Source: an uncultured virus (IMG/VR IMGVR_UViG_3300026549_001205)
Lineage: Duplodnaviria > Heunggongvirae > Uroviricota > Caudoviricetes
Length of the DNA: 20,000 nucleotides
IMG/VR virus record: IMGVR_UViG_3300026549_001205
Direction: 5' to 3' (one strand)
The position numbers were made by a program, and so were the translations under genes. Numbering within the stretch: the first letter of the stretch is position 1; each line of letters opens with the position of its first letter. This document shows, piece by piece, positions 2,200-18,905 of the stretch. The notes below the pieces were generated by a model. That model worked only from the letters and a program-made list of their open reading frames with translations, had not been told where the DNA came from and searched no databases.

Positions 2200-2247
2200 A
2201 AACACACAGGACAGTTTCCACCAGACTGAGCAAAAACTTTTTGAAAT

Positions 2248-2733
2248 TTATCTGAAGTCTTTCAGCTGCTCCCGGAGTGCCTTCAGCAGAATCTTCCTTC
2301 TGTAACTGACGGTCGTCTGCGGAATGCCGGTCTGTGCGGAGATCTTCCTATCAGAAAATCCTTCACCGAACAGTTCAATGATGGAGCGATCATCCGGTGC
2401 AAGCTGCGCCAGTGCCTTATTCAGCTCCTCGATGGCGATGTTCATCATGACCATGTCTTCCAGGCTATCGCCCTGCTGCGGAATATCGAGTCCGTCATCC
2501 AGCATCCGTTCAATGGATACGGGCGCACCAGTCGCTGCCTGATCGCAATGGCTGCAGTCGCCTGTACAGCGATGACCGCCGACATTGCAACGCCATGCTC
2601 TCTGGCGACGCTTCATCTCCGCCCATGCCGGTCTCTTGAAGGCCAGGTACACTTCCTCGGTGACCGGAACCATCTGTCCGTTGATCTCGATGTAACGCTG
2701 CTTGTTGTTATTATTCTGTTCCTGCTTTTTCAT
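2248..2733 (-). CDS. Sigma-70 region-4 (ECF/Tn916 Orf7-like) transcription factor with an N-terminal four-Cys motif
   Basis: Likely ATG at 2733 (GAGGTG-AAGAAA-ATG). VPVTEEVY, RC-x6-CxxxCxxC, and a C-terminal HTH in ALAQLAPDDRSIIELFGEGFSDRKISAQTGIPQTTVSYRRKILLKALR. Confidence 0.85.
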   Translation of the reverse strand: MKKQEQNNNNKQRYIEINGQMVPVTEEVYLAFKRPAWAEMKRRQRAWRCNVGGHRCTGDCSHCDQAATGAPVSIERMLDDGLDIPQQGDSLEDMVMMNIAIEELNKALAQLAPDDRSIIELFGEGFSDRKISAQTGIPQTTVSYRRKILLKALREQLKDFR

Positions 2734-2904
2734 TTTCTTCACCTCGTGGCCGAGGCACAGAAAGCAGGAATCAGAACGGGTCCTAGCCGATCCAGACCCT
2801 TCTAAGGCGTAATAAGACGCACGAAAGAAAGGTCTCCGTTACAGCTTCACAAGTCTGTCTCTTATGACAGATGGTGAAACTATTACGGTACCTGCTTTCG
2901 TGCG
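2714..2904 (-). promoter_or_regulatory. Structured 5' leader of the sigma gene: long hairpin plus RBS-sequestering helices
   Basis: Imperfect ~87-nt hairpin at 2818-2904, hairpin at 2773-2803, a CCTCG-GCCA-CGAGG hairpin over the SD at 2742-2755, and a 10-bp perfect helix 2761-2770/2719-2728 that encloses the start codon. Confidence 0.65.
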
Positions 2905-3102
2905 CACTCCAGCCGATATCAAATTTTCAAAGTTCTGCTACGTAGATATAAAGGTTTGGATTGTCGGACCTGAGCTGGCCCGTGAGAAAGATTAAGAGCT
3001 GTCGTAGAACATGTCGTTTTCCTCCGTAGGTTTTCATTGGTTTACATATTTCATTAGGATTTCTCCTAACATGCTTATTGTCGCTGATATCGAATTTTCA
3101 AA

Positions 3103-3141
3103 ATATGGTCACGGCATGGGCAGAATATGGGTGCGATATGG
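3103..3141. repeat. Four phased hexamer direct repeats (ATATGG, GCATGG, ATATGG, ATATGG) at exactly 11-bp period; probable protein-binding operator
   Basis: + strand copies start at 3103, 3114, 3125 and 3136. They lie between the tandem terminators and the sigma leader. Confidence 0.7.
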
Positions 3142-3157
3142 AAAATTAAAAATAGGT

Positions 3158-3188
3158 AAAAAAATAGCCCCTGCGAAGTCGCAGAGGC
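3158..3188 (-). terminator. Rho-independent terminator (second of a tandem pair)
   Basis: Minus strand GCCTCTGCG-ACTT-CGCAGGGGC followed by TATTTTTTT. Confidence 0.8.
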
Positions 3189-3190
3189 AT

Positions 3191-3225
3191 AAAAAAAGAG
3201 GAGAAGTTCTTGTATCCTCCCCCTC
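3191..3225 (-). terminator. Rho-independent terminator (first of a tandem pair) ending the BREX/ABC-3C transcript
   Basis: Minus strand GAGGGGGAG-N10-CTTCTCCTC followed by T7, starting 7 nt after the ATPase stop codon. Confidence 0.75.
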
Positions 3226-3232
3226 AGTCAGT

Positions 3233-5023
3233 TCAATCTGTATATCCAATCAGAAGTCCGTATCTTCCAGGCTCTTCTCCATGCGTATAATATTCTAGCT
3301 TGGTATCCTTATAATCAATTTTCGGTATGCTGTTTTCTACAATGATGACCTGCCCACAATCCTGGTGAGCGACCATGTAATTGAAAAGTCCCCTTCTCAT
3401 ATAATCGGTGGTTTCATCCCCACCCTCTTTTAAAGACAGAATCGGAGAATCAAGCAACAATACACCCAGTCCATGCTTTCCGCTTTGAGCGAGGTATTGA
3501 TGAAGAGCAAGCGCCACCACAGTATTTAGGAAGGCTCGATATCCTTTTCCCCATCTCAGCTTCTTTTTCCCGTTGACGACAATGTCAAAATCATCGCTGT
3601 CAAAATCAAAGAAGCAGTTTTTATAATTATGAAATTTCACTTCCTTCAGAATTTCGATCAGAAGATTATTGAAGGCATCCACAAAGTCCTCGGAGAAGTT
3701 ATCCTGCGCTTTGAACGGTGCCTGTGCATCATTTGGATCCTCTTCCTTCTTTTTAGCAGAGGTCATGAATTTTTCAACTTTCTCTATCACATCCGTGCGC
3801 GCACTTCTGTCGATTGAAAGCTTCAGGCCGCTGATTTGATCCTGCAAAGCCTGTATTGCAGGCTCAAGTTCCTGGTTTATTATATTAGACAGCTTGTCAC
3901 TTTCCGCTCTAAGCTCGTCTATCATCGCTTGATGACCGGAAATTTCAGAATCGATATCGTGTTGTGCATCCATTACATCATTAAGCTGAGGCAATATTCT
4001 GTTCAACTCAGCTTGAGCGGCTTCCTCATACGATTCCCTTTGTTCAGGATGAATATCTCCGCCACAGAACGGACATTTCTTAGGCTGTTCAACAGACTCC
4101 AGTTTCTGCTGACCATCTACAATGAAACTGATTCTCCTGATATCTGACCGGTACTGACTCAGCAGGATCTGATAACGGTTCTTCATCGATTTCGCCGATT
4201 TCTGCAAGTCTTTTACCTCAAGGATCCTGTCTTCAATCTCCTGACGCTTCTTCGATGTCTCTGAAATTTTATCCTGGGCTTCCCTAATCTGCTGTACAAG
4301 ATCATCAATGGCCTTCTGAGCCTCTTCTCTAGAAAGAACATCTTCCTCTTCGTCTGGCTTCAGCGTCGATAAAAATGCAAGATTTTCTATCTTTACAGCC
4401 GCTCTTGCCTTATTCTCCGCTGTTTTCTTCTTAGGATCCTTCTTTTCCTTGTATTCCTGGAAATCATTCTCATTCAGAAAATATAACAAGGTACTTTTTG
4501 TAGCTGTTTTGGAGAAAGGTCCACCCTTACTAAAAAATATGCTGTCTTTTCCGATGACGTTTCCTTCTGCAACACATATAAGATTCAGAAACGATCTATA
4601 CGTGAGACTCTGCCTGCCTCCATTTTCATTTTTAATAATTTTTACACCCTCACCAACTCCCGTTATGGTCATCCACACACGATTGATAGGGTACTTTGAG
4701 TTGCCAGCAGTATACGTATGAGACTCTATTTCCGGATCAGTGCTTTCAACCTCGATCTTTGTACTGCCTAACCCGCGATGCATAGTCACCAGACCATTTT
4801 TCGTACGTACAGCAATATGGACCGTATCGCATCCGGTATCTTTATCAATGACAAATTTGTCATAATCCAAACCGCACATAAAATCAAAACTATCTAGAAT
4901 CCAGCTCTTACCAGTATCCGATGCGCCATGAATTATATTCAATCCATCCTTAAACTTTACTTCGGAGTCTTCAATGCCCGGTCCGGTATACCAGAGTCTT
5001 TCGATATAATATCTGCTATTCAT
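3233..5023 (-). CDS. ABC-3C/Lamassu-family SMC/Rad50-like ABC ATPase (LmuB-like)
   Basis: 596 aa. Walker A GLNIIHGASDTGKS, long coiled coils flanking a CPFC zinc-hook-like motif, degenerate signature GKGYRAF, Walker B/D-loop LLLDSP, and QVIIVEN. Confidence 0.85.
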   Translation of the reverse strand: MNSRYYIERLWYTGPGIEDSEVKFKDGLNIIHGASDTGKSWILDSFDFMCGLDYDKFVIDKDTGCDTVHIAVRTKNGLVTMHRGLGSTKIEVESTDPEIESHTYTAGNSKYPINRVWMTITGVGEGVKIIKNENGGRQSLTYRSFLNLICVAEGNVIGKDSIFFSKGGPFSKTATKSTLLYFLNENDFQEYKEKKDPKKKTAENKARAAVKIENLAFLSTLKPDEEEDVLSREEAQKAIDDLVQQIREAQDKISETSKKRQEIEDRILEVKDLQKSAKSMKNRYQILLSQYRSDIRRISFIVDGQQKLESVEQPKKCPFCGGDIHPEQRESYEEAAQAELNRILPQLNDVMDAQHDIDSEISGHQAMIDELRAESDKLSNIINQELEPAIQALQDQISGLKLSIDRSARTDVIEKVEKFMTSAKKKEEDPNDAQAPFKAQDNFSEDFVDAFNNLLIEILKEVKFHNYKNCFFDFDSDDFDIVVNGKKKLRWGKGYRAFLNTVVALALHQYLAQSGKHGLGVLLLDSPILSLKEGGDETTDYMRRGLFNYMVAHQDCGQVIIVENSIPKIDYKDTKLEYYTHGEEPGRYGLLIGYTD

Positions 5024-5480
5024 GGGGCACCACCTTTTCCTTTATTGATTCAACAGCTATAGTGTTGATCTGTTTTAAGATTTCCTGTTCTGAGTAACCG
5101 GCATATTTATCCAACACACAGTTAACTTCTCTCCTGTAGGAATCCGCATATCTCGTATCAAGCGATTGCGCGAATTCCCTTCCTTGCTCTGCGATGCTGA
5201 ACAGAAATCCGTCTTTTGTTGCCTTCGCAGTAATAAGCCCCCTCTTAACAAGAAGATTTACTGCCTCCCTTGTGAGTTCCTTTCTAGTCGCGAATTCCGC
5301 GAATTTGAAAAGATTATCTCCATGAAGATTATTATCCGATGTATGAAAGCTCTGTCCGTACAACGACACAAAATCAATTGCAGCAATCATATTTATTGAA
5401 AAATCTGCTCGTCTCTCGGTCTGCAGCAGAATAACCGTTCTCAACGCAGTTTCAAAAGGAGTATTAAAAATTTCATTCAT
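5016..5480 (-). CDS. ABC-3C middle component (MC2-like, winged-helix; LmuC position)
   Basis: 154 aa. FNTPFETALRTVILL...DFVSLYG...NLHG...R..L...LVKRGLI...G motifs resemble ABC-3C middle component 2. It overlaps both neighbours by 8 nt. Confidence 0.75.
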   Translation of the reverse strand: MNEIFNTPFETALRTVILLQTERRADFSINMIAAIDFVSLYGQSFHTSDNNLHGDNLFKFAEFATRKELTREAVNLLVKRGLITAKATKDGFLFSIAEQGREFAQSLDTRYADSYRREVNCVLDKYAGYSEQEILKQINTIAVESIKEKVVPHE

Positions 5481-6600
5481 CTTCAGGCTCCTTCCACGTT
5501 ATTATTTGATCGTTTGCCAGCATATGACACATACCGATTTTTTCCGCAGAGCCAATCCATCCGGGGAGCAAGGAAATAAGTGATCTTGTGATGGGCATCC
5601 CCGCTGCGAACCCAGTGACTGCTGTCAGTTTATCAAAGCCATTGTCATAAGTCTTGATGTAATGAGGATATATCCCATCATTGACCTCATCCTTCATTTC
5701 ATCAAATTCTTTATATTCAATAGGAAGCACCGCATCTTGAAGAGATCTCCGGATCGTTTCCATTGCATAAAAGCATTTTCTCTGTTGTGAAAAATCTCTT
5801 TTATAAGTACGATTACGATCCACCTCACTGCGGGTAAGTCTGCCCCTTCCTTCTGCATCTCCGTATGCATCGTACAAAGCATTAACATAATTCAGCTCTA
5901 CATCATCATCTACGATTACCGGAACTTTTATGTTTTTCGGCCTCGGATATTTGCTGAGGAGAGCTTTCAGATCAGTGACATCCTGCTGAATATCTGCATC
6001 CGTAATGACTGCTCTTCTTACTGGCCTTAGAATTTCCCCAGCATCCCATTTAAGAATACTGTCGGTCTCATCGACATGGATTCCTCCATCAGTGCCAGTA
6101 TATCGATCTATATACCCGTCATCGATCTCAGCGATTCCATCAGTACAATCCTTATTGTTAACATTCAGAATCGCGAAGCGGTACAGTGATGCCAGCAGAT
6201 ACGCCAGGTCTATATACGAAGCTGAAAGAACATGCTCCTTTGTAAATCCCCGCAGCCATCCGACAGAATCTCCCGTAAGTATATTTTGGTCATCATTCAG
6301 GACATGCTTTATTGCCAGAACCAGTGCCGTCTTCTTTCCCGTATTGATCATCGGAATCACAAGGTTTCGAAAGTTTTCTGCAACATCCTCCGGATCATTG
6401 TTTCTTGCAGCCTCAATCACATCATCCGGCACATTATCATGGCCGCTCTTTAAGTGTCCGGAGAGCGCTCCGTCGCGGATCACAGATGTATCGGAACCAA
6501 AAGAGGAAAATACAGCATCACGCAAAGGGTCATTCCTTACGTTCTGACCCTTCGCTTGATAAAGTAAAACCTGCAATGTACCGAAACAAACACGCTCCAT
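5473..6600 (-). CDS. ABC-3C first ('effector', LmuA-position) protein: uncharacterised N-terminal domain plus CTD6-like C-terminal domain
   Basis: Likely ATG at 6600 (GGGGGTG SD at normal spacing). C-terminal ELNYVNALYDAY...F..QRKCFYAMETIRR...EFDEMKDEV.DGI...NGFDKL...KIGMCHMLAND..I.W resembles the ABC-3C CTD usually paired with MC2. Confidence 0.72.
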   Translation of the reverse strand: MERVCFGTLQVLLYQAKGQNVRNDPLRDAVFSSFGSDTSVIRDGALSGHLKSGHDNVPDDVIEAARNNDPEDVAENFRNLVIPMINTGKKTALVLAIKHVLNDDQNILTGDSVGWLRGFTKEHVLSASYIDLAYLLASLYRFAILNVNNKDCTDGIAEIDDGYIDRYTGTDGGIHVDETDSILKWDAGEILRPVRRAVITDADIQQDVTDLKALLSKYPRPKNIKVPVIVDDDVELNYVNALYDAYGDAEGRGRLTRSEVDRNRTYKRDFSQQRKCFYAMETIRRSLQDAVLPIEYKEFDEMKDEVNDGIYPHYIKTYDNGFDKLTAVTGFAAGMPITRSLISLLPGWIGSAEKIGMCHMLANDQIITWKEPEDE

Positions 6601-6625
6601 TAACGAAGCCACCCCCTTCTCGAAA

Positions 6626-8653
6626 TTATTCGATCCCCAGTGCCTTGATTACAGTATCCTCCGGGCTGCTGTAGAACGATATCTGGAACTTTGCAAACAG
6701 CTCTGCTGGCACCGTCGGTATATCTGCCGCGCTGCTCATCGGAATCAGTATCCTTTTCGCTCCGGCATCAAATGCAACCTGAAGCGTAGAAGCCAATTCC
6801 TCGACTTTATTGACGGTCCCGCCGATACTCATAGATCCCAGTACACACAGCTGCGGCAATACCGGCTTATCGAGCGCAACGCTGCAATAGGCGACCATCG
6901 CCGGCAGCGATACATTGCTTGAAAGACCCACACCCTGGCAATCCTGAATAGCCATGATGTAATCCTTGTTATCCGTAGAGATTGATGCACTGATCTGCTT
7001 GGCATTTGCCCGGAAATAATTCTGAGCGGTCTTTACAGACTCCTTCGTCTCCTTAGCACTCTGCATGCCTGTGACGTCAAATTTTCCGCTACCGTTCGTT
7101 ATAGTAGCTTCGAACTTGAACAGGCCCATCATGCCGTTCGTTCCATTGCAAACGGTGTAGACATGCCCAGGCTTTCCCAGACCTTCCGGAATCAGCTTGC
7201 CGCCGCCCTGCTCAAGAACCGGAACGGAAACCTCTTCCATGTTGTCATTGCGGATATAGCTGAACTGCACATCGTAAAATTCCATTCCGCCGATCTTCTT
7301 CAACTGCTCCTTGACCCTGCGGCGTCCTTCAATGGCGTACTTCAGGATCTCCTCCATCTGGTCTTCCGTGTATTTTTCGTCCGGATAGATGAGCTTAGTA
7401 AGTCCGGATACCATCTTCCTTACGGCAATCGTGTCACGCTGGTTCAGGCACCTACCGAGCTTAAAATATTTATCAAAAGCATCCGTCTCTGGTACCTTAC
7501 GCATCTCCCGCATCCATTCTGCAAGGTAATCCGAGATGAAGCCATAGTTATCAGTAAAGTACTCAGGCCTCATCTTCGGGATTTCCCAGCCGGGAATATA
7601 GCAGTGCATACGGTCAAAGAATGCACTATCGATCATGGCTGTCGGGAACGGTTCAAACAGGTGCGATGTCTTAAGCAGATAATCCACACTCTGATTGATA
7701 TTTCCCACAAATACCATCGAGGCATTCGCTTGAATGGCATCCTTGCCGCGGGCAAAGGATCCTGACGCCATGTAGTCCTTCATGATCTGCACGCCGTCCT
7801 TGTCCTTAAAATTGATGCCAGCGACCTCATCAAAAGCCACTACATCCCAGAGACCAACCAGGCCGACCTGCCGTCTGCCCATGTTATAGAAGAGGTTAGC
7901 GACAGTTGTCTGTCCTCCTGAAATAAGGATAGAGTTCGGTGAGAGTTCCTTGTATATATGCGATTTGCCGGTTCCCCGAGGGCCCAGTTCGCAGATATTG
8001 ACGTTATTTTCTACAAGCGGAACAAGTCTTGCGAGCAGGTGCCACTTTACACGATAATCAAACTGTGTCGGCTCCATACCGCAGGAGCGCAGGAGCAGGT
8101 CTATCCACTCTTCCTTCGTAAACTGGCTCCTAGCCTCGATGATCTCGTTCTTGTCCAGGTTGGGCATCTGAATAGGTGTGATCTCACTTATTACGAATGG
8201 GCTCTTTTTCTTTTCATCCTCATCGTAGAAATACGTCAGATCAACGATGCACCAGATACCTCCAGCAAGAAGTTTTTCATATTCCCGGATATACTTCGGA
8301 TGAACATAGAGTCCCTTGATTCCGAGGAAGAGGAAGTCCGCCTCATACTGATCCGTATGCTCATTCAACTTGACGCTGACCTTGTCAATGACAGTATGAT
8401 TGCCCTCTTCCTTGATCCTTGCCTTGATCTGCTCAGCTTCATCCGGACGAACATAATTGTCCGACAGGATTCGCTTCACTTGCTCGATGCCTGCTTCCAC
8501 CTCGGCTTCATCATCAGAGGTGCAGTAATTTCCAAGAAGATACTCAAGGACATATGTAGGCACATTAGCACTGTCCTTGATCTTCTTCGTCGCCCCCTTC
8601 GGGACCACTCTTCCGGAGAAGATCTCAAATACTTTCTTATCTAACTGATCCAT
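6626..8653 (-). CDS. brxL: BREX BrxL (MCM-like AAA+ ATPase with Lon-like C-terminal domain)
   Basis: 675 aa. NVPTYVLEYLLG, ELGPRGTGKSH (Walker A), GLVGLWDVVAFDEV, MKDYMASGSFARG, DSAFFDRMHCYIPGWE. Located after pglZ. Confidence 0.95.
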   Translation of the reverse strand: MDQLDKKVFEIFSGRVVPKGATKKIKDSANVPTYVLEYLLGNYCTSDDEAEVEAGIEQVKRILSDNYVRPDEAEQIKARIKEEGNHTVIDKVSVKLNEHTDQYEADFLFLGIKGLYVHPKYIREYEKLLAGGIWCIVDLTYFYDEDEKKKSPFVISEITPIQMPNLDKNEIIEARSQFTKEEWIDLLLRSCGMEPTQFDYRVKWHLLARLVPLVENNVNICELGPRGTGKSHIYKELSPNSILISGGQTTVANLFYNMGRRQVGLVGLWDVVAFDEVAGINFKDKDGVQIMKDYMASGSFARGKDAIQANASMVFVGNINQSVDYLLKTSHLFEPFPTAMIDSAFFDRMHCYIPGWEIPKMRPEYFTDNYGFISDYLAEWMREMRKVPETDAFDKYFKLGRCLNQRDTIAVRKMVSGLTKLIYPDEKYTEDQMEEILKYAIEGRRRVKEQLKKIGGMEFYDVQFSYIRNDNMEEVSVPVLEQGGGKLIPEGLGKPGHVYTVCNGTNGMMGLFKFEATITNGSGKFDVTGMQSAKETKESVKTAQNYFRANAKQISASISTDNKDYIMAIQDCQGVGLSSNVSLPAMVAYCSVALDKPVLPQLCVLGSMSIGGTVNKVEELASTLQVAFDAGAKRILIPMSSAADIPTVPAELFAKFQISFYSSPEDTVIKALGIE

Positions 8654-8667
8654 TGTCTACGCCTCCA

Positions 8668-11193
8668 TCAGAACATCTTGAACTGCAGGATGTCTACTGT
8701 GAACTGTTCCTTCTCGATGTACTCATCCGGCTTTTCAATATTCCGTAATATCAGGTAATAGCGCTTGCTTCGATCAAATTCAATATTCATCAGGTTAAAG
8801 CGAATCTTCGTGCTCCTGGAATCCACATCGTCACTTTCTGAAGCTGCAACGAAACGATATTCGCCGGAAACTTTGTTTCCGTCCTCATCCACCAGATAAG
8901 TCTCACAGGTGATCGCCTGCTTCCGTTCCTCAATCTTCTCATACTGTTCGAACTCAAGCGTAAAGCTCCTATTCGTAATCTTCCTTGTAATGCTCTTGAG
9001 ACGGACGCCTACCGGTGTCACATCTTCCTTGCCCTTCGCTGCAGATAGTTCTCCGATATGAATGACCGGAACAATTGTCTCCTGCAGGGACGGACCGCCA
9101 TGAACATACTGCAGGCCGCTGCCTTGGGTCTTAAATAGATCGTAGCCATAAGGCGTGATGATCTTATATTCTCCATCTGATACTTCCGGCAACGGAAATT
9201 CGACTGTATACGGAATCTGCATCGATTTATCATCAGTCAGTACAAAGCGCTTGGATGCCTCTATAGCATGCAGCGACATGACATTGCTGTATTTCTGCGA
9301 CTCCTCGATCTCATTTCTCCGATACATGAAGCCATGATCGGCTGTTACATAAAAATTGGAGATCTGCAGGCTGTTGTACAGTTTCCTGATAAGCAGCAGG
9401 ATCTCATTCACTGCTGTCCCGGCTACGTCGAAGACCTTACTTTCGTTATGTTCGCCGGCTTCATCCACAACATTGTGGTAAATGTAGACAAGTGATTTAT
9501 CCGCCATATAGCTGCGGAGCTCCGCACGAGACATCTTGTTGATCTTTTCGTAGCGAATCGCGGCATAAGATTCCTTCTTAGCCTTAAGCACAGCATCTCT
9601 GGCATTCGTATCAACAGTAGACTGTGAATCCACCATGACCAGTTTATTGACATAGGTCATAAGCCTGTGGGGAAGGAGGGAGGCCATACCGAACCTTGTC
9701 TCTGAAGGAAGCGGTGATACTGCATAGTTGATCTCTTCCGTTCCCTTAAGGATCGTATCCGCCTTGATCTTCTCGAAGAGGTCATGGCCTATCTCATAGC
9801 GCAATCCATCAGAGATGATGACGAAACACTTCTTGTAATTCTTGTTCTGCACTTCCTGGTAGAAGTCATTAGACGTCTTTATGCCAGTGAACTTCCACGC
9901 ACCTTGCTCTTTCAGCGCATCGCTGTATGCCTTGCCGAGAGGATCGAGGAACTTCGCCTGATATGTGGATTCTACTAAGCTGAGAAGATCCTCCATCTCA
10001 GGGATCGGAACCTCTATCTTATTGAAATTGGCACAGATTCTTCTGTAGTAGGTATCTACCAGATACCAGGAATCTGCATAATTCTTCACATATTCCGTAG
10101 CCAGAAGTCCTGTCGGGATCGTCTTCTCTATCTTCTTTAAGAACGCCATGACCGAGCTGAGAATCTCATACTCTGCCTGATGCGTCTCATACCACATGGA
10201 ATTGAGTCTGTATGAGATAACCCTCTCGAAGGAATCATAATCCAGGCTGCCGTTCACAAGGCTTGCAGAAATCTTCTTGATGATGTCACTGTCGATGCAC
10301 TCGAAAATGTCTGCTTCCTGTACACAGGTGATATCCCTTGCCACAAGCAGACCCTCAATCTTCAGATCAATAGCAATATCTCGCTGCAGATCCTTGTACC
10401 GTTTATCCTGCTTGATTTTATCTACGAAGAACTTGGCGTCCATTTTCCCAGGTCCATCTATCTGATATTGCTGATAGAAGGACGGCAGGTCGCCAAAATC
10501 TGCCCGCTGCTCGAGAAGAGCTGTGAACATGAACTTCTTCGTGAGTGTGCTGATCTTCTGGTCGCCTTCGTAGTTATAGTACTTGCAGATTTCATCCCAG
10601 AGATATTCTTCAAAGCCGAACTTCTTAAGGTCCGCGTATTTAGTACCATCGGTATCAAAAACAAGCTCCGTCAGAACGCTCTCGATGGATCTGGATGCCG
10701 CCTTAACCAGGACGCACATCATAGCCATTCGAAGGTCGCTGGACGCCATAGAGTCGTTCACCTCAATATAATTACCCAGTTTCTTTGTTCTTCCCTCGGC
10801 ATCAAAGAACTTCGCATGCCATTCGATTACACGACGCAGATCCGTATTCGTAAGGCCGAGCCTTCGCATAGTCAGCGCTACGGTATCCGCATAATATTCC
10901 TCGCTATACATCAGCACATCCAAAAGCCAGTTCTCTTTATCTGCCGGCTTCTCATGCGGAATATAGATCAGATAGTTTGAATCAGTATCGTCGTGCTCAA
11001 GCGTCTTCTTGACCGCAAACTCATTCTTATCACAGACGAGCACCTTGCAGCAGTCATAGTTGTCCTGCGTAATGTCGTCCTTAAAATTTACCGGCGGATC
11101 ATACCAGAATATTATCTTCCTGCTGCTTCCTTCGTTTTCCTGAAACAGCCTGATGATTTCCTTTCTGGCTTCCTGATAATCTATACTTGCCAT
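8668..11193 (-). CDS. pglZ: BREX PglZ (alkaline-phosphatase-superfamily phosphodiesterase/nuclease)
   Basis: 841 aa. RKIIFWYD, ENWLLDV, VIISDGLRYE, LPSETRFGMASLLP, VYIYHN.VD..G, TADHGF, YVHGG.SLQE. Confidence 0.95.
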   Translation of the reverse strand: MASIDYQEARKEIIRLFQENEGSSRKIIFWYDPPVNFKDDITQDNYDCCKVLVCDKNEFAVKKTLEHDDTDSNYLIYIPHEKPADKENWLLDVLMYSEEYYADTVALTMRRLGLTNTDLRRVIEWHAKFFDAEGRTKKLGNYIEVNDSMASSDLRMAMMCVLVKAASRSIESVLTELVFDTDGTKYADLKKFGFEEYLWDEICKYYNYEGDQKISTLTKKFMFTALLEQRADFGDLPSFYQQYQIDGPGKMDAKFFVDKIKQDKRYKDLQRDIAIDLKIEGLLVARDITCVQEADIFECIDSDIIKKISASLVNGSLDYDSFERVISYRLNSMWYETHQAEYEILSSVMAFLKKIEKTIPTGLLATEYVKNYADSWYLVDTYYRRICANFNKIEVPIPEMEDLLSLVESTYQAKFLDPLGKAYSDALKEQGAWKFTGIKTSNDFYQEVQNKNYKKCFVIISDGLRYEIGHDLFEKIKADTILKGTEEINYAVSPLPSETRFGMASLLPHRLMTYVNKLVMVDSQSTVDTNARDAVLKAKKESYAAIRYEKINKMSRAELRSYMADKSLVYIYHNVVDEAGEHNESKVFDVAGTAVNEILLLIRKLYNSLQISNFYVTADHGFMYRRNEIEESQKYSNVMSLHAIEASKRFVLTDDKSMQIPYTVEFPLPEVSDGEYKIITPYGYDLFKTQGSGLQYVHGGPSLQETIVPVIHIGELSAAKGKEDVTPVGVRLKSITRKITNRSFTLEFEQYEKIEERKQAITCETYLVDEDGNKVSGEYRFVAASESDDVDSRSTKIRFNLMNIEFDRSKRYYLILRNIEKPDEYIEKEQFTVDILQFKMF

Positions 11194-11206
11194 TCGCTGT
11201 TTCTCC

Positions 11207-14200
11207 TTACTTCAAGGGTACGAGCAGGTCTTTCTTCACCTTGGTCCCGCTGTCCGTTACAAGTTCCACGCCCTGGAACTTAGCGTAGTTTTCCTTAACA
11301 CCATCATCCAGGTCGATCTTGATGTACTGGTTTGCCATGTGATCGAGGACCTGACCGTATTCGATTGCTTCGTTATATGCTGCTGCCAGGTTCTGACGCT
11401 CTTTTTCAAGACGAGTCTTGTCTCTCCCCTCGGCCTTGGCAATCTGACCATTCAACTCATCCAGTTCATTCTTCTTACGTGTGGATTCCGGCAGATAATA
11501 CTTCGCATTGATTCTGGCAAGTGTGTCCTCGTTATAGCGATGCATGTAAATCACGCACTTGAATCCAGCCTTCTTACCGCTGGAGAACATCCAGTAAATT
11601 GGACGTTTCTGATAAATTTTCAGATGATCCGGATAAAAGCCATCGTTCAGATACCTGTTCAAAGTCTCCTCTGAGGACTCATTATTATTCTTGCCAAGAG
11701 CCTCAGCGATAAAGTCGATATTCTGACGATAGGTATCCTCACCGTATATCACCTTGATGAGCCTGATAATCTTTGTCGTCAGACCATCTTCCATTCCTAA
11801 CTTTGTATAGATAGGAACAATGCCGTCATCATCCGGCTGATATGAAACATACTTCGATGCATCCCAGTCACCGCCGGCATAGGCAAGTCCGTCGACATCA
11901 AGAGAATAGCGCCCCATTACGATTCCGATGAGATAGGAAATTAGAGAGCGGATGTCGCGTTCCTTATCTGCAAGGCGAACTGTAACATCCTTGTCTTCAA
12001 CCTCCGGAGTCAGCTCATCCTGCAGGCCATAGATATCGATAAAGATACGGTTCAGTTCCTCCTCATTGGACTTCAGTTTATCAAAGCGATTCTGACAAGC
12101 CTTTTCCCAAGCCTGATAAAAAGAAGAAACATATTTCTTTCCGTCATCTATAACGCCGAAAACAAGCGGATGTTTCTTAAAGTTCCAGGAATATTCTGCG
12201 GTATCCCAGTCTGTTTTTGATAAAAGCAAGTTCTCTGAGACTAATTCTTCAACCTCATTTTTATGTGAAATATCCTTTTTAAATGGTATTCGCTCTATAT
12301 CCCAGTTGGTAAAACTCATTGTTGGATTAAATGCTGCGAGATAATAACTCGACACATTTGAGCAAAGAAAACCTAACAGGAACGTTTGCCATTCTTTTTC
12401 TGAAATAAATATAGATCTGCTGGTATCATCAAAAATAAACCCCGGCGCTTTATACTTCACTGCGAAACGGACGGAACTAAGCTTATTCCAGGTAAGGCCT
12501 TCCTTGAAATAGTAATTTGTATTCTGCGGTCTAGCGGCTAGTTTTCCTCTTGCATTTTTATAGTGTTTTATCCTATAGCCGTTGTTTTCCCAGTCGACTA
12601 CCATTTCATTATTAAATGACCACTTCCTAAATGTTCCTCCACTATTACAGGGATACCATTTATAGGGGAGTTTTTCTGTGTCCTCACATTTGCTTGCATT
12701 AAATCCTATGGTCGGCAAATTGATTTCAAACCAAAATCTTTCAAAGATGTCATTATTCCCTGTTGCAAGACCAGCTTTAGGAGAAGCAAAGTCATTTAAT
12801 ATTTCCCCATCTTTGAATGCTTCAGCAAAAATTTTTCCGCCCCAATAAATATAAGGGGCTCCTGGAATATTTTGGAAACGGTTCTGGCTGACAAAATACC
12901 TATGCTTTCCGGATAAAAATTCTCTTCTCTTTCCTTCTTCGCTAGGTTCATCTACAAGTCGTACAAACGAGCCTACATATTCTTTGTCAATTTTATTTCT
13001 AAATACAAATGTAGCGGTTTGAACTACTTCCCCATTTATTGTTTCAAAAGCATGCGCACCAAGTTGAGCCAATGTCACAACGTTTCTATTTCGAAGTAGT
13101 GTCTCTCGTAAATCTATAAAGCTCGAAGTGAACATCCATGCCTGCATGTTAATCATGGATAGAAAACCATTTGTTTTTACAAAATTGGTTTCCATGAACA
13201 TTGCAAACATGTCCACCTTACTATTCGGATATTCTTTCGCCGCATAATCACTTACCACTCCCTCCATTGAAGAAATCGGTCTATATGGTGGGTTCGTGAT
13301 CATTACGTCATATTTAGCCGACAACACCTCTGCCAGCGCTGCTAGTTCTTTCAGTCGTTTCACCCCATAGCTCAGAAACTCCGTATTGAATATACTCGGA
13401 ACAGCCTTCTTATCGATCTTCTCTAATGCTCCGTCAAGGCATGTGAAGTCAATCGACTTTACCTTCAGCAAAGAACCGATAGTCTTACCCTCTTCGAAGG
13501 TATCTACCAGATAGTCAATATGCTTGGTCTCCGTGTCGTTCAGTAGATCAAGATCCTTGACCTGCTTCCTGTATCCCATATCCTTCAGCAGCTTGGAATC
13601 CTTCAGTTCATAGACATGAGGAGCCACATAATACTTCTCATCAAAGAAACGGTTATTGACACTTCTGGCCTTCATGATCAAGGAGAAAGACGCGAGCTGC
13701 ACTGCACGCTTGTCGACATCAAGTCCAGTGAGATTCTTCGTCAGAATCAGTGTCGGGATATCTCTCTTCTGATATCCGCGCTCCTCATACATCGCATACA
13801 GAAGGTCAAATACATATACAAGGATATGTCCTGACCCACAGCACGGTTCAATGATCCGAATATCTTCCGGATTCACATTCTTATAACGGATCTCTTCGAG
13901 CTTCTTCTGCACCTCAGGCTTCTGCTCCGCATCCTCGACATAATATTTCATTCTGGACTTGAGAGAAGAATTCGGATAGCTTTCAAGCCATAATCTTCCC
14001 ACGGAGTTCTGCGCCATATAGCGAACGATCCAGTCAGGTGTAAAGAGCTGCGTTACCGCCGGAAGCGTATATTTTGTGATGGTCTTCTTGGATGCGTAGA
14101 CAGCGTCCTTCTTGGATGAAATGTAGAACTGATACATCCAGCCGATGATCTCTATATCCTCGAGAAAAGCCTCCTCCGGAATCTCGACCAGCTCTGTCAG

Positions 14201-14773
14201 AACCGTCTCGCCCTTCAGAAGTGTATTCGGAAGCAACAGATCGATATAGGAATAATCCGTACTGAACAGCATCGGAAGGATGCCGGACAGCGCATTACAC
14301 TGACGGAGCAGTACGTAACGGTACAGCTCCTCGATCTTGCCCTGCTGCTTATATTCGTTACAGATGTTCATATCCAGCTTCAGTTCACCGGCTACGAGAT
14401 TCAGGTTCTTCAGAATTTCCGGTTCAATGCCTCCGCCCGGATTTGACAGGACCCGGAAGCCATGTGGAAGAAAACCGTGTACTTCCATGAAACGTAAAGC
14501 CACGAAACGGTTGAACCAGGTGTAAGCAAATTCTTCTATGACATTCCTGTATCCCATACGGTCTACAAGATTGACGATATAGTTTCTCTTGCCCAGCATG
14601 TCGCCCGGATATGACGTAGGGTCACCCTCGATTACTGTGAAGTCTCCGACCTTTTCTGCTTTTTTGATTTCCGTATCACTGTTTATCCCCAGCGCCTTCA
14701 GAGAAACCTCGATCTGCTGCTCGAGGTTCTCCTTTGCCCATGTGGAATAAGTCTGTAAAATTCTCTTATCCAT
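11207..14773 (-). CDS. pglX: BREX PglX/BrxX N6-adenine DNA methyltransferase
   Basis: 1188 aa. AYTWFNRFVALRFME, TQLFTPDWIVRYM, motif I EPCCGSGHIL, motif IV NPPY, YQKRPIYW, IDLDDGVKENY. Confidence 0.95.
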   Translation of the reverse strand: MDKRILQTYSTWAKENLEQQIEVSLKALGINSDTEIKKAEKVGDFTVIEGDPTSYPGDMLGKRNYIVNLVDRMGYRNVIEEFAYTWFNRFVALRFMEVHGFLPHGFRVLSNPGGGIEPEILKNLNLVAGELKLDMNICNEYKQQGKIEELYRYVLLRQCNALSGILPMLFSTDYSYIDLLLPNTLLKGETVLTELVEIPEEAFLEDIEIIGWMYQFYISSKKDAVYASKKTITKYTLPAVTQLFTPDWIVRYMAQNSVGRLWLESYPNSSLKSRMKYYVEDAEQKPEVQKKLEEIRYKNVNPEDIRIIEPCCGSGHILVYVFDLLYAMYEERGYQKRDIPTLILTKNLTGLDVDKRAVQLASFSLIMKARSVNNRFFDEKYYVAPHVYELKDSKLLKDMGYRKQVKDLDLLNDTETKHIDYLVDTFEEGKTIGSLLKVKSIDFTCLDGALEKIDKKAVPSIFNTEFLSYGVKRLKELAALAEVLSAKYDVMITNPPYRPISSMEGVVSDYAAKEYPNSKVDMFAMFMETNFVKTNGFLSMINMQAWMFTSSFIDLRETLLRNRNVVTLAQLGAHAFETINGEVVQTATFVFRNKIDKEYVGSFVRLVDEPSEEGKRREFLSGKHRYFVSQNRFQNIPGAPYIYWGGKIFAEAFKDGEILNDFASPKAGLATGNNDIFERFWFEINLPTIGFNASKCEDTEKLPYKWYPCNSGGTFRKWSFNNEMVVDWENNGYRIKHYKNARGKLAARPQNTNYYFKEGLTWNKLSSVRFAVKYKAPGFIFDDTSRSIFISEKEWQTFLLGFLCSNVSSYYLAAFNPTMSFTNWDIERIPFKKDISHKNEVEELVSENLLLSKTDWDTAEYSWNFKKHPLVFGVIDDGKKYVSSFYQAWEKACQNRFDKLKSNEEELNRIFIDIYGLQDELTPEVEDKDVTVRLADKERDIRSLISYLIGIVMGRYSLDVDGLAYAGGDWDASKYVSYQPDDDGIVPIYTKLGMEDGLTTKIIRLIKVIYGEDTYRQNIDFIAEALGKNNNESSEETLNRYLNDGFYPDHLKIYQKRPIYWMFSSGKKAGFKCVIYMHRYNEDTLARINAKYYLPESTRKKNELDELNGQIAKAEGRDKTRLEKERQNLAAAYNEAIEYGQVLDHMANQYIKIDLDDGVKENYAKFQGVELVTDSGTKVKKDLLVPLK

Positions 14774-14784
14774 TCCGCTACTCC

Positions 14785-17700
14785 TTATCCGAGGTCGATT
14801 TCATCGTTGCCTTCAAGTTCCGAGAGAAGCTTCTGCCGGATTGCATCTACGACCTTCTCAACATCATCTCTGGATGTAACTTTCTTGTTGATGGTAGGCA
14901 CGCACTCAATAATACGAATATGTTTGATACGAACTGATGGCTCTCCACCCTCATTCATAACATCCGTAATAAACCTGCGGAAACCACTGACTGTACCTGC
15001 ACTTGCGGTTACGTAGGAATCCATATTCGAGGTCTGCACTGTCAGAGAATCAAGCCATCCGCTGTACTGATCGGCAATTTCATCGGCCTTCGCCTGCAGA
15101 CGGTCTTTCTGTTCGTCGTTAAGGTCTGCCTTCAGTGCTTCCAAGAGCTCTCTGCTGACGGTATCTCTGTCGGCTTCGATTCTCTGCTTTATCGCCTTCA
15201 GCTTGTCTTCGATGATCTCCGCCTTGACCGTACTTGCCTGGAATACAAGATTGGCAAGATCATTCATTCTGGTGAACGGCATCTCCATACCGATGATTTC
15301 GTTCATCTGGGTAACGATTGGCTCCAGTTTGGAAAGATCCTGCAGCGAGCAGTTCTGAGCGTACCATTCGCAGATCTTCTTGCCGTCCTGATAATTCTTC
15401 TGCTGATTGCTGCCATCCTTATAGAAAGCCTCAAGCTGCTCAAGAGTCTCTGCGTTGTCCTCAAGGTTGTCCTTCCTCGCAATGATCTCATTGAAGACTG
15501 ACAGCGTATCGGAACTGTGGAGGATGGCATCAAAGTCCTTGTAGATTTCTGCTGCCACTGTGCATCCGGCGTATGATGATCCGTATTTCTGCTTCAGGCC
15601 GCTCAGGAAGTCACGTTTCCTAGTAAAGAATGCGATCACACCTTCCTTAAGCTTTGTTTCTTCCAGAGGGATATTCTCGGAGTAGACATCGTTCATAATC
15701 CTCTTTACAGAATAAAGAACCTGTTCATCAATCTTCACCTGCAGGCGGACTACCATCGTGTCTGTGTTGGTCTTGTGTACAAGGTCGTTCTTAAAGGAGC
15801 TGTTCCGCTCATCCACTTCGTTATCGTGAATAAGGATCTGGATCTTGTGATGCTTCCAGAGCACTCCGACCATTCCCTGGATATCGATATCACGCCAGCC
15901 GTAAGGCTTCTTGGTGAAGAAATCCAGTAAGCTCTTGACTGTCACCTTCCTATGCAGACCAAGGTCATCCTTAATCTTGCCGCAGATCTCGTCATAGGCA
16001 TTCTTATTGACATCTCCAGAGAGATCATCACCTGTGAGGGTCATCTGGTTATCATTCAGCATCGTAAGGATGCTTCTCTGGTCCTGGTAGAAATAAGACA
16101 CGAGGGAAAGCTTGAAATAGTCGTGTCCAACCATTTCCTTCAACGCATCCTGCAAGCGATCCTTGCCATCCTTCTGCTTGATATCGATCCTGGCACCGGA
16201 CAGATAGATCGGTGCTGTCCTGAGAGATGCACGGATAATATCCTCCGCACGTTTCAGACGGTCGGAGTACTCTGCAGACTTCTTGCTCATGATCTCTGTA
16301 AGAGCTGCAGACATCGATGCACTGTTGTTTCTCTTGAATGTCGCGATTTTATTGGCGCGAATAAGCTCATCGATAAATGATCCTTCCGTAAGATCCACAA
16401 CGATCGAATTCGAGCGTACGGATTCAGCACCGAATTCTGTATCCTGACGAAGCCCGGAGAAGTTCGTCATCACCTTGATCGTGATGTGTTCCTGGCTGAA
16501 GGCTCCTTTTATCTCGTCATCGACGTAGCGGTTCAGGCCGAAATCATAACGGCCCTCATACCTGTATTTATTACTTTCGAGCACCTTATCGTAGATGATG
16601 TCAAAGATAGTCCTCTTGACTTCCCCTTCGTTATAGGCGGAGTTAATGATCTGACGGTTTACATCCTGTTCAGCGTTCGTAAGGAAGTCGTACTCGTCAC
16701 CATTCTTCTGGATGAGTGTCTCCTCCTCAAGCTGCTGCAGCGCATTGAGGATCTTACTCTTAAGCGCTGCCTTGTCGGCATTGATGTTGTCGACCATCAG
16801 TGTCGCAAGCCTGTCGATCGTCGCCGGCATTTCCTTGACATGCTTGATCATGAAGAGGACACGCAGAACTCTGATGGCGAAGGCATCGAGACTTGTCCGT
16901 CTCTCAGCATTTGAGAATACGGTCTTGATATCGTAATCGATAAATTCCTCGATGGTGGAATAGAAACTGTCAAACGGAACCAGGATTCCTGATTCCTGAT
17001 CAGCGACAGCTTTAGCTGAATTCTGGAAGGCTGACAAGAGAGAACGCTCATTCTGTGACAAATGGCGACCTTCACTCATGCCGTGTTCACGAATCGCTTC
17101 AAATACCTTCTGCAAGAGTTCAAACTGATAGGACACGAACGGATATACGTCCTTAAACTCTTCTGCATCTTTATATCCGGACCATGTCGGCTTCGCCTGG
17201 AACAGGATCAGATTTGAAAGTTTACTGCTGTTGGCGTCAAAGACTGCCTTAAGAGGTGTCGCAGCCTCATCCTTCTTCTCAAGGATACGGCGCTTGATGA
17301 CCTCATCGGCATTGGCGCCGGAAAGAAGAAGTCTGGTATCAAAGCGTCCCTGGATCTTCGAGAAGTCCTGCTGCTTATCGGACGTCGCGTCGATCATGGC
17401 CTTCAGTTCCTGCTGTGAGGTGACGACTACCCATGCCTGGCCACGTGCAAACTTACCGAGATCCTCAACACAGGTCTGCAGATTCAGCATCAGCTGCGTG
17501 TTATCACCGATGAACTGACCAACCTCATCCATAAGGAAGATGACTCTGGTCTTATTCTTACGGCAGTATTCATCTACAATCTTGGCAAATTCCTCTGTCG
17601 TATTCGTAAAGTTGCGGGTCTGATCCTCGATAAACTTCTTAGCGCTCTCCTCGCTCATTCCACGTGATGCAACAAGAGCCTTAATGATATAGTCACGGTT

Positions 17701-18306
17701 CAGAAGAGCCTTTGCTCTTGTCTGGGCCCAGTTGCGGCCGGAGAATTCTTCGAACTTGGCGATGAAATCCTGCAGCTTTCCTTCGTTATCGAGTGTACGC
17801 TCCAGATCTGCCACCCAGGGAGAAGTGCCACAATAGCCTACGGACTCATTGAACGCCCTGAGCATGATATCCATAATGGCTTGTGTGCGGCTTTTGGAAT
17901 CAGACTTTGCTTTACTATCAATATTGAAAAGCACTACCTTATTCTTCGCCTTTGCACAGGTCTTCAAGTCGGCCAGTACCATCTGGTCTTTAATCTTGTC
18001 ATTAAAATATTCAACGGCAGGCTGACCCGCAACTTCCTCATTCTCCAGGATGTATCCGAGGATCTTCAGGAAGTGAGATTTACCGGATCCAAAGAAGCCC
18101 GTAATCCAGACACCGATCTTCTCTGTCGGATGATTGATAGACTCACGATAGCGGCGGAAGAATGTACGCATACTCTTCGTGATCTCATCCGTGCATACGT
18201 ACTCCTCGAGTTCCTGCCACTTTTGTTCTTCGTCTTCATTACCGATTGTGACGACACCCTGGATGGACCTGGAAATATCCTTCTTAAACAGATCTTTAAT
18301 AATCAT
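14785..18306 (-). CDS. brxC: BREX BrxC P-loop ATPase
   Basis: Likely ATG at 18306 (AAGGAG SD; MIIKDLFKKDISRSIQGVV). Walker A WITGFFGSGKSH, Walker B FLMDEVGQF, WVVVTSQ, FSKIQGRF, YPFVSYQF, PYGW. Confidence 0.95.
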   Translation of the reverse strand: MIIKDLFKKDISRSIQGVVTIGNEDEEQKWQELEEYVCTDEITKSMRTFFRRYRESINHPTEKIGVWITGFFGSGKSHFLKILGYILENEEVAGQPAVEYFNDKIKDQMVLADLKTCAKAKNKVVLFNIDSKAKSDSKSRTQAIMDIMLRAFNESVGYCGTSPWVADLERTLDNEGKLQDFIAKFEEFSGRNWAQTRAKALLNRDYIIKALVASRGMSEESAKKFIEDQTRNFTNTTEEFAKIVDEYCRKNKTRVIFLMDEVGQFIGDNTQLMLNLQTCVEDLGKFARGQAWVVVTSQQELKAMIDATSDKQQDFSKIQGRFDTRLLLSGANADEVIKRRILEKKDEAATPLKAVFDANSSKLSNLILFQAKPTWSGYKDAEEFKDVYPFVSYQFELLQKVFEAIREHGMSEGRHLSQNERSLLSAFQNSAKAVADQESGILVPFDSFYSTIEEFIDYDIKTVFSNAERRTSLDAFAIRVLRVLFMIKHVKEMPATIDRLATLMVDNINADKAALKSKILNALQQLEEETLIQKNGDEYDFLTNAEQDVNRQIINSAYNEGEVKRTIFDIIYDKVLESNKYRYEGRYDFGLNRYVDDEIKGAFSQEHITIKVMTNFSGLRQDTEFGAESVRSNSIVVDLTEGSFIDELIRANKIATFKRNNSASMSAALTEIMSKKSAEYSDRLKRAEDIIRASLRTAPIYLSGARIDIKQKDGKDRLQDALKEMVGHDYFKLSLVSYFYQDQRSILTMLNDNQMTLTGDDLSGDVNKNAYDEICGKIKDDLGLHRKVTVKSLLDFFTKKPYGWRDIDIQGMVGVLWKHHKIQILIHDNEVDERNSSFKNDLVHKTNTDTMVVRLQVKIDEQVLYSVKRIMNDVYSENIPLEETKLKEGVIAFFTRKRDFLSGLKQKYGSSYAGCTVAAEIYKDFDAILHSSDTLSVFNEIIARKDNLEDNAETLEQLEAFYKDGSNQQKNYQDGKKICEWYAQNCSLQDLSKLEPIVTQMNEIIGMEMPFTRMNDLANLVFQASTVKAEIIEDKLKAIKQRIEADRDTVSRELLEALKADLNDEQKDRLQAKADEIADQYSGWLDSLTVQTSNMDSYVTASAGTVSGFRRFITDVMNEGGEPSVRIKHIRIIECVPTINKKVTSRDDVEKVVDAIRQKLLSELEGNDEIDLG

Positions 18307-18904: not shown

Positions 18905-18905
18905 A

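Follow-up and report, generated by a model that had tools for sequence, protein, structure and literature searches.

What keeps the first gene of a phage-like replication module silent, and what could turn it on, is the question raised by the leader of a regulator gene in a 20,000-nucleotide (nt) stretch of DNA from an uncultured virus of the Caudoviricetes (IMG/VR record IMGVR_UViG_3300026549_001205; this whole stretch is called here the window). The gene codes for a 161-amino-acid protein resembling region 4 of the sigma-70 factors (the sigma-like gene). A preliminary description, made from the sequence alone, had proposed that mutually exclusive RNA helices form a translational switch at its start. 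We have found that the leader contains three conserved, co-varying and mutually exclusive helices on the sense RNA and that they have no upstream competitor. From the predicted structures we consider it likely that they form a self-contained leader switch that gates the phage regulator gene.

Three competing helices at the start of the regulator gene

The minimum free energy (MFE) fold predicted for 2930-2700(-) consists of a long hairpin (helix C), a small hairpin (2799-2778), a helix closing the start region (helix A) and, nested within the latter, a hairpin that holds the Shine-Dalgarno sequence (SD). Its energy was -95.7 kcal/mol, versus -57.9 +/- 4.5 kcal/mol for 200 dinucleotide shuffles (z -8.43), none of which was as stable. 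Besides, the 191 nt of 2904-2714(-) contain three perfect Watson-Crick inverted repeats of at least 9 bp, a number reached by 0/2000 shuffles (mean 0.06), which bears out the earlier suspicion that these complementarities are non-random. All three helices lie at the minus-strand positions where they had first been placed.

Helix A pairs 2777-2762 with 2727-2713 and, as had been described, encloses the CCTCG-GCCA-CGAGG hairpin over the SD and the ATG (-31.5 kcal/mol for both folded alone). Together they cover the SD, the AUG and codons 2-7, i.e., in the predicted ground state the SD and the start are sequestered. Helix C is a hairpin of 38 pairs and ~95 nt (2909-2814), prolonged by three pairs (2914-2912 with 2808-2806), with -53.2 kcal/mol when folded alone. 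Its 5' arm, which we call segment 1 (Table 1), is shared with helix B, in agreement with the preliminary description. In helix B, segment 1 pairs with the strand that masks the SD (segment 3). This helix had been given as 13 bp with one bulge; it is present, but its length was underestimated, the helix having 21 pairs (2914-2891 with 2768-2748) and -33.6 kcal/mol, compared with -18.7 +/- 3.1 kcal/mol for shuffled partners (0/1000 as low). Since it takes in the 5' arm of the SD hairpin, helix B competes with this hairpin as well as with helix A. It is a conserved alternative helix predicted to withdraw the masking strand from the SD. Actually, segment 1 resembles the strand of the sigma-like gene that comprises the SD arm, the AUG and the first codons. 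Together with the 21-bp extent of B, the preliminary description had missed the run of U after helix C in the homologues, a short open reading frame (mini-ORF) further upstream and the absence of an upstream antiterminator, all of which are treated below.

Conservation and covariation in homologous leaders

The homologous leaders were reached through the protein. A protein search gave 22 homologues of the sigma-like protein and an alignment of 19 (A1) was used for the locus searches, which returned 80 viral and 80 metagenome loci and, after start-codon assignment, 90 loci with 71 distinct upstream regions. Locus searches with a single protein gave one irrelevant locus each; the alignment-based ones were productive. 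With blastn and nhmmer the leader of the window could be recognised in ten distinct sequences, all of them upstream of the homologous gene, which form its clade (window, L003, L083, L011, L004, L005, L084, L006, L086 and L039, where L006 is identical to L007, L085 and L087, and L039 to L041). The same layout of hairpin, U-run and anti-SD strand was found in 20 of the 71 distinct upstream regions, a count that is partly circular since a U-rich tail was demanded by the search (hairpin of 75-105 nt with at most -30 kcal/mol, ending 75-100 nt before the start, U-rich tail, then masking strand). These 20 leaders were divided by eye into 12 sequence groups. Outside this set, a blastn search of 50,697 phage records with the 536-nt leader gave no match, protein searches of phage records found only relatives of 29-38% identity (in six phage records and one plasmid record), and a scan of viral contigs for the core pattern of segment 1 found 51 stretches, from which nhmmer added no leader to the set.

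RNAalifold recovered helix C and the SD hairpin, with compensatory changes in 10/29 pairs. The base of helix C (22 pairs) was paired in 90.5% of the cells of the ten-leader alignment, with four pairs changed on both sides, and in its middle helix 7/10 pairs were changed on both sides; the tip was variable. G-U pairs occur at several positions and are confined to the sense strand, which assigns the structure to the RNA of the regulator-mRNA strand. The SD hairpin appears among the relatives as CCUCG/CGAGG, CCUCC/GGAGG or CCUCA/UGAGG, and its closing pairs co-vary (CG in five and UA in four at one pair; CG in four, GC in three and AU in two at another). Each relative also has a longer helix to the AUG or the first codons, with differing sequences (in L006, CCUUCAUC/GAUGAAGG). 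Helix B was paired in 84.8% of cells in the ten close leaders, versus 39-50% when the partner was slid by 1-3 columns, and two of its pairs were changed on both sides.

In the distant leaders the strands of helix B differ in sequence and complementarity is kept (e.g., a 10-bp perfect core in L062, or 14 pairs around a 2-nt mismatch in L045). We carried out a permutation test with one representative of each of the 12 groups, in which the duplex energies within a leader were set against those obtained when the two segments came from different leaders. Cognate versus non-cognate energies were -32.4 and -22.6 kcal/mol for helix B, -26.0 and -19.2 for helix A, and -27.0 and -18.3 for helix C, and for each helix 0/20000 permutations were as low, counts that are not true probabilities because the 12 groups are mutually related. 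No difference between cognate and non-cognate was seen in the controls, in which segment 2 was paired with the start region or with segment 3, and segment 1 with the start region. For helix B the cognate partner ranked first in its row in 6/12 groups. The strands have thus diverged between groups while the predicted complementarity within each leader has been kept. The proposal of mutually exclusive helices, with a possible translational gate, has therefore held up: they are on the sense strand and are conserved and co-varying in the homologous leaders.

Helix C as a likely terminator in the homologues

In the homologues the base stem GUGCGC..GCGCAC is directly followed by tails of the UCUUUUUU type. 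Independently of the tail demanded by the search, a MAFFT alignment of 19 of these leaders has at least 90% U in the columns of the run, with the window as the exception at A2813 and A2810. The tail of the window, UCUUAUUA (2817-2810), occupies the position of this run in degenerate form. This pattern makes helix C a likely intrinsic terminator in the homologues. An attenuator had been suggested, but no upstream antiterminator exists and the leader is thus not a classical one. In ten leaders the complementarity of the RNA between the mini-ORF stop and segment 1 to any of segments 1, 2 and 3 did not exceed that of shuffles (29/30 tests within z +/- 1.9 and one, a weak case, at -2.6). A pairing of the mini-ORF SD region with the 3' arm of the terminator was also considered and discarded, as it reflected only generic purine-pyrimidine complementarity, not above shuffles. 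The only alternative partner of the terminator arm is located downstream of the terminator and would act on the ribosome-binding region.

Energy balance between the states

In the window, the state with helix B had -80.4 kcal/mol, versus -95.7 for the state with C and A, and it leaves the SD and the AUG unpaired. Among 17 leaders for which the optimum was compared with the fold in which B was enforced, the gap was 0-10 kcal/mol in eight, and in three (L086, L041 and L037) the unconstrained full-length optimum already has B. When MFE folds were computed for transcripts of increasing length in 18 leaders, the optimum passed from C to B in 16 of them once the masking strand was complete (3' end ~24-20 nt before the AUG), and in 12 of these 16 addition of the SD arm, the AUG and the first codons brought it back to C, this time together with A. 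We infer from these predicted folds that B and C are near-equal in energy and that A would act as the tie-breaker.

The mini-ORF and the conserved box

Upstream of the helices, with its stop codon 55-89 nt from segment 1, there is a conserved mini-ORF. GGAGG is found 4-8 nt before its start in nine leaders (window, L003, L083, L004, L005, L084, L006, L086 and L011). The peptide is MFYDSS in the window, L004, L005 and L084, MYNDSS in L011 and L086, MYNDTS in L006 and MTTNDTS in L003 and L083. The codons change synonymously (Asp GAC/GAT, Ser AGC/AGT/TCA, Phe TTC/TTT, Tyr TAC/TAT, Asn AAC/AAT), and this variation, with serine in both of its codon boxes, argues for selection on the peptide. An SD-bearing ORF of 6-7 codons upstream of a terminator is, at the sequence level, what the leader ORF of a leader-peptide attenuator looks like. 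In L039 the homologous ORF, MTTRST, lacks an SD of its own and is overlapped (ATGA) by an extra SD-bearing ORF, MRDPP. In this region of L039 (~1294-1345, identical in L041) MRDPP ends in Pro-Pro-stop, and MTTRST shares its first 8 nt with the MTTNDTS ORF. Pro-Pro-stop is a context of slow termination. The window also has a second mini-ORF, MKYVNQ, from ATG 3054 to TGA 3034 (3034-3067, minus), with AGGAG 8 nt upstream; it lies 42 nt before the conserved one and was not seen in the homologues. The conserved mini-ORF probably adds an input of translation status in the clade of the window.

Next to helix C there is a 17-nt box with the palindrome GATATC in its core. Two exact copies are found in the window, 171 nt apart (0.23 expected; at least two copies in 9/200 shuffles), and one per homologous locus. 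A protein might bind it, either as DNA or as RNA. Through pairing of its 3' end with 2892-2889, the copy next to helix C can close a local hairpin (2918-2911 with 2896-2889), which would fold ahead of the synthesis of the 3' arm of helix C.

A model of the switch and its alternatives

The locked state would begin with the pairing of segments 1 and 2 in hairpin C. Given the U-run that follows it in the relatives, C should terminate most transcripts there, and fewer in the window. Segment 3 would then be available to the SD arm, the AUG region and codons 2-7, and with helix A and the SD hairpin formed the read-through transcripts would still be silent. In the open state segment 1, which mimics the start region, would take segment 3 into helix B, leaving the SD and the AUG single-stranded. 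B would be favoured whenever the start-region strand is unavailable, because it is still untranscribed or because it is covered by an initiating or translating ribosome. The leader would thus work as a co-transcriptional latch held by ribosomes, a bistable double lock with a built-in key, and the outcome would be a lytic or replication regulator kept tightly off and expressed all-or-none per transcript. The first opening might come from folding kinetics, from a protein that binds the box or local hairpin, or from the mini-ORF. A bolder version, which we regard as doubtful, is that of a timer of a prophage master regulator latched by ribosomes, in which every transcript would meet one of two fates, permanent silence or an open state fixed by its first ribosome, with the mini-ORF in this clade tuning the outcome to the translation state of the cell.

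Several observations weigh against the self-contained switch. The support comes from predicted energies and from ~12 interrelated sequence groups, both groups and segment windows having been defined by ourselves, and to this is added the partial circularity of the wider-class count mentioned above. In the register of the window, helix A was paired in only 47-55% of the cells of the MAFFT alignment, because the start regions are misaligned, and its conservation rests on the energy test and the inspection of each sequence. With 85-100 nt (~95 in the window), helix C is unusually long for an intrinsic terminator, and the interruption of the U-run by UCUUAUUA means that termination in the window may be weak. 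The locked state is better by ~15 kcal/mol at full length in the window, so opening needs kinetics or a helper, and no candidate helper was identified. Helix B was never optimal in two of the 18 leaders, L062 and L003, the latter being the closest leader relative of the window. The mini-ORF is absent from the distant leaders that have the same C/B/A core; it is therefore an accessory of the clade and cannot be the general trigger. None of the 24 sequencing runs found to carry the region was an RNA run, and a consensus scan of both strands of 2200-3400 found no promoter-like site, a weak negative as it covers sigma-70-type sites only.

The need for a helper is what makes factor-driven antitermination attractive. 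Here a phage or host protein bound to the box and local hairpin (2931-2889) would hold segment 1 away from segment 2, the polymerase would read through and segment 1 would be passed on to segment 3, with the RNA as platform and the protein as trigger. The absence of an RNA-only antiterminator upstream is consistent with this, as is the sequence of the box, which is better conserved than that of the stems (TATC does not vary in 10/10 leaders) and has a single copy per homologue. A comparable local hairpin, with a loop around a UGCGCA core, is predicted in 12/18 leaders, and its inner pairs vary by clade (GCU/AGC, GCC/GGC, GCCUU/AAGGC, GUCC/GGAC). However, this hairpin is weak (z from +0.01 to -1.95 among the 12), is not in the predicted fold of the window and has the G+C-rich base of the terminator arm within its loop; as helix B needs some of the same nucleotides, the protein would have to release them again. 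Since, besides, the box is missing from L006, L086 and the distant leaders and we have no candidate protein, we find this explanation somewhat unlikely. A ribosome-sensing attenuator, in which a ribosome slow or stalled at the end of the mini-ORF (..D-S/T-S-stop) remodels the RNA and relieves termination, would account for the strong and properly spaced SD of the mini-ORF, its conserved length and peptide in 10/10 clade members, the hairpin ~10 nt after the stop in most of them and the extra overlapping ORF of L039, with its Pro-Pro-stop ending. What makes it unlikely is the distance of 55-89 nt to segment 1: the intervening RNA is no better a partner for segments 1, 2 or 3 than shuffles are, so no path from the position of the ribosome to the terminator can be drawn. 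The mini-ORF has no run of regulatory codons either, and the distant leaders keep the same core without it.

The remaining explanations would deny helix B a function or place the trigger in another RNA. Under passive insulation, helix C would shield the module from read-through of the upstream defence genes, A would be an ordinary hairpin at the ribosome-binding site and B a functionless by-product of the similarity between strands. The cargo directly upstream does look constitutive (BREX and ABC-3C in the window, ABC-3C in L083, a helix-turn-helix (HTH) repressor-like gene in L006), and in most sigma-like homologues the SD lies inside some hairpin. But a functionless by-product would not co-vary, and B is kept with different sequences in the distant leaders (0/20000 in the permutation test, cognate first in 6/12), reaches 21-25 bp and has its energy tuned to that of C in 16/18 leaders, and we consider insulation quite improbable. 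The antisense analogy drawn earlier (P1 C4, P4 CI) was not supported. An antisense or small RNA of this type, or of that of the plasmid countertranscripts, would pair with one of the segments and flip the fold. The competing helices do recall countertranscript attenuation of the pT181/pIP501 type, and the A-rich box is a U-run on the opposite strand. Against this, no promoter-like site was found on either strand (see above) and no Rfam match, C4 included, in the window or in the 18 homologous loci; the conserved sense-strand G-U pairs of helix C would be A-C mismatches in an antisense RNA, and every partner needed for switching is already in cis. An antisense trigger thus seems to us extremely improbable, and the cis-acting switch of three exclusive helices is the explanation that we prefer.

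Known RNA families and comparable systems

Rfam 15 gave 0 matches at gathering thresholds in the whole window and in 18 homologous loci (99,805 bases). The check covered the phage-associated DUF2800 and DUF2815 motifs, which had been named for such a scan, as well as the C4 antisense RNA, the T-box and riboswitches, so the leader is absent from this catalogue. A permissive scan of 2600-3300 gave ten matches far below gathering (E from 0.44 to 6.8), mostly on the upstream terminator. No description of the leader was found by full-text literature search, and it was not found in the main text of a 2017 survey of 224 candidate RNAs whose motifs are listed in its supplements (PMC5737381). As judged from sequence, the leader is an uncatalogued cis-regulatory leader class with unusual wiring.

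Leader-peptide attenuators comprise the trpL/hisL type and, in Firmicutes, the ribosome-mediated attenuators of erm, cat and ABC-F resistance genes. Like them, the leader has a short SD-bearing ORF followed by a hairpin with a U-run and alternative pairings that share strands. However, their defining feature, an antiterminator between ORF and terminator, is missing here; the alternative partner of the terminator arm is downstream and acts on translation, there is no run of regulatory codons, and distant members lack the ORF altogether. Start regions that are bistable or kinetically gated are known from lambda cIII mRNA, the 5' leader of the MS2 maturation gene and the refolding of hok mRNA. 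In these, as here, a long-range helix keeps the SD and the AUG closed at equilibrium; they become accessible in an alternative fold, the choice between the two being plausibly made while the RNA is transcribed or just afterwards. Unlike in them, the activating strand is here locked in a terminator-like hairpin, coupling two levels, and the leader has no sequence or Rfam relation to them.

Countertranscript attenuation controls the rep genes of pT181 and pIP501, and P1 C4 and P4 CI are antisense regulators of phages, the C4 family being in Rfam. The likeness lies in the exclusive helices, one of them a terminator, placed before the replication or lytic regulator of a mobile element; the difference is that here every competing strand lies in cis and that neither an antisense promoter nor an Rfam match was found. 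Riboswitch expression platforms also combine a terminator and SD masking in one leader, with a logic of sequestor and anti-sequestor, but there is no conserved aptamer-like core in this leader, and the variable tip of helix C makes no ligand pocket evident.

Other arrangements were seen upstream of sigma-like homologues. A second leader class (L013, L025, L026, L027, L033, L057, L061 and L069), ~190-220 nt before the start, has a short terminator hairpin with a long U-run, and this hairpin matches, through its loop and 3' arm (10 + 5 bp), an SD-masking strand located downstream. This long-range pairing is the predicted optimum in L061, giving the logic of the window with the other terminator arm shared. 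In a third arrangement, immediately before the start codon (L008, L029, L030, L034, L058, L067 and L071), the SD is in a G+C-rich hairpin followed by a U-run and then the ATG, one hairpin being both terminator and SD mask.

The locus and the regulated protein

All the genes of the window are on the minus strand (Table 1). The order sigma-like gene, DUF2800, DUF2815 is repeated in the relatives and the upstream genes vary, with ABC-3C in the closest relative, L083, and a gene for an HTH_3/HTH_19 repressor-like protein in L006. The leader therefore lies with cargo or lysogeny genes on one side and the replication module of the phage-like element on the other. In the window the hairpin at 3160..3188 is the 5' limit of the 490-nt intergenic region before the regulator gene, and no convincing -35/-10 was seen by eye upstream of the mini-ORF or within the box. 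BREX and ABC-3C (3233-19511, minus) make up a defence island immediately upstream of the phage-like replication module.

Table 1. Positions of the genes, leader segments and hairpins of the window, in the order in which they are read on the minus strand.
Feature	Position	Strand	Remarks
Type 1 BREX, six genes (brxA, brxB, brxC, pglX, pglZ, brxL)	19511-6626	minus	complete system
ABC-3C system, three genes	6612-3233	minus	directly after BREX
ABC-3C ATPase gene	3233-5023	minus	ends at terminator-like hairpin
Intrinsic-terminator-like hairpin with T-run	3160..3188	minus	stem 3188-3167, 9 pairs, then TATTTTTTTA
Upstream copy of the 17-nt box, TTTGAAAATTYGATATC	3086..3102	minus	second copy in the window only
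SD of the mini-ORF, GGAGG	3021..3025	minus	8 nt before ATG
Conserved mini-ORF, ATG..TAA, MFYDSS	2992..3012	minus	in 10/10 distinct clade leaders
Small hairpin	2965..2982	minus	10 nt after mini-ORF stop; sequence variable; absent from L006 and L086
Conserved box, TTTGAAAATTTGATATC	2915..2931	minus	adjoins the 5' side of helix C
Helix C, long hairpin, total span	2806..2914	minus	G+C-rich base conserved, tip variable
Segment 1	2885..2914	minus	5' arm of helix C and 5' strand of helix B
Segment 2	2839-2814	minus	3' partner of segment 1 in helix C
Small hairpin	2778..2799	minus	between helix C and anti-SD strand; sequence not conserved
Segment 3, masking (anti-SD) strand	2748..2777	minus	pairs with start region (A and SD hairpin) or with segment 1 (B)
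SD hairpin, GCCUCG-GCCA-CGAGGU	2741..2756	minus	2756-2751 with 2746-2741; SD GAGG (2745-2742) in the 3' arm
Start region	2713..2733	minus	ATG 2733-2731 and codons 2-7; 2727-2713 is the 3' strand of helix A
Sigma-region-4-like regulator gene, 161 aa	2248..2733	minus	ATG 2733-2731; first gene of the module
Two small ORFs		minus	between the sigma-like gene and the DUF2800 gene
DUF2800 PD-(D/E)XK nuclease	1671-553	minus	
DUF2815/Enc34-type single-stranded DNA-binding protein	534-1	minus	

The DNA of the region is present in bovine and sheep gut metagenome runs. Four runs yielded nothing beyond short DNA contigs, with a few single-base variants and no informative ends or joints. Other ruminant gut contigs have single-base variants at plus-strand positions 2740, 2885, 3068 and 3165 (low depth); 2740 is in the spacer between SD and AUG and 2885 in upper helix C, and they are uninformative on covariation.

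The regulated gene had been called a sigma factor. The protein matched Pfam PF08281 (sigma-70 region 4) with 27.3 bits (cut-off 25.7) at residues 105-148; TIGR02937 gave 40.0 bits, below its cut-off of 42.9, and matched in the C-terminal part only. Its best PDB relatives were NarL-type HTH domains and region 4 of FliA, and its full-length match was phrog_13787, a family of unknown function. Regions 2 and 4 of sigma-70 were not found together: region 4 alone was matched and the cut-offs of the full sigma families were missed. As only models of region 4 or of LuxR-type HTH were matched, we call the product sigma-like, the label of sigma factor being unproven. The N-terminal half has a Cys-rich stretch, C-x7-C-x3-C-x2-C, at residues ~49-64 (~2590-2540, minus). 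About half of the aligned homologues share this possible metal-binding insert, and the others have a shorter Cys-poor stretch in its place.

Biological meaning

The sigma-like gene opens the replication module of widespread phage-like elements of rumen and gut Firmicutes, and the leader bears on how such elements keep this module silent and then fire it. Its logic is unusual, one strand being at the same time a terminator arm and a decoy of the gene's own ribosome-binding region. The conserved leader peptide of 6-7 residues is a second lead beside the switch. If the leader does work as a latch, it would be a compact natural design for all-or-none expression that is proof against read-through, and possibly a part for synthetic biology. 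Were the timer to be true as well, the switch from lysogeny to replication would read the translational capacity of the host.

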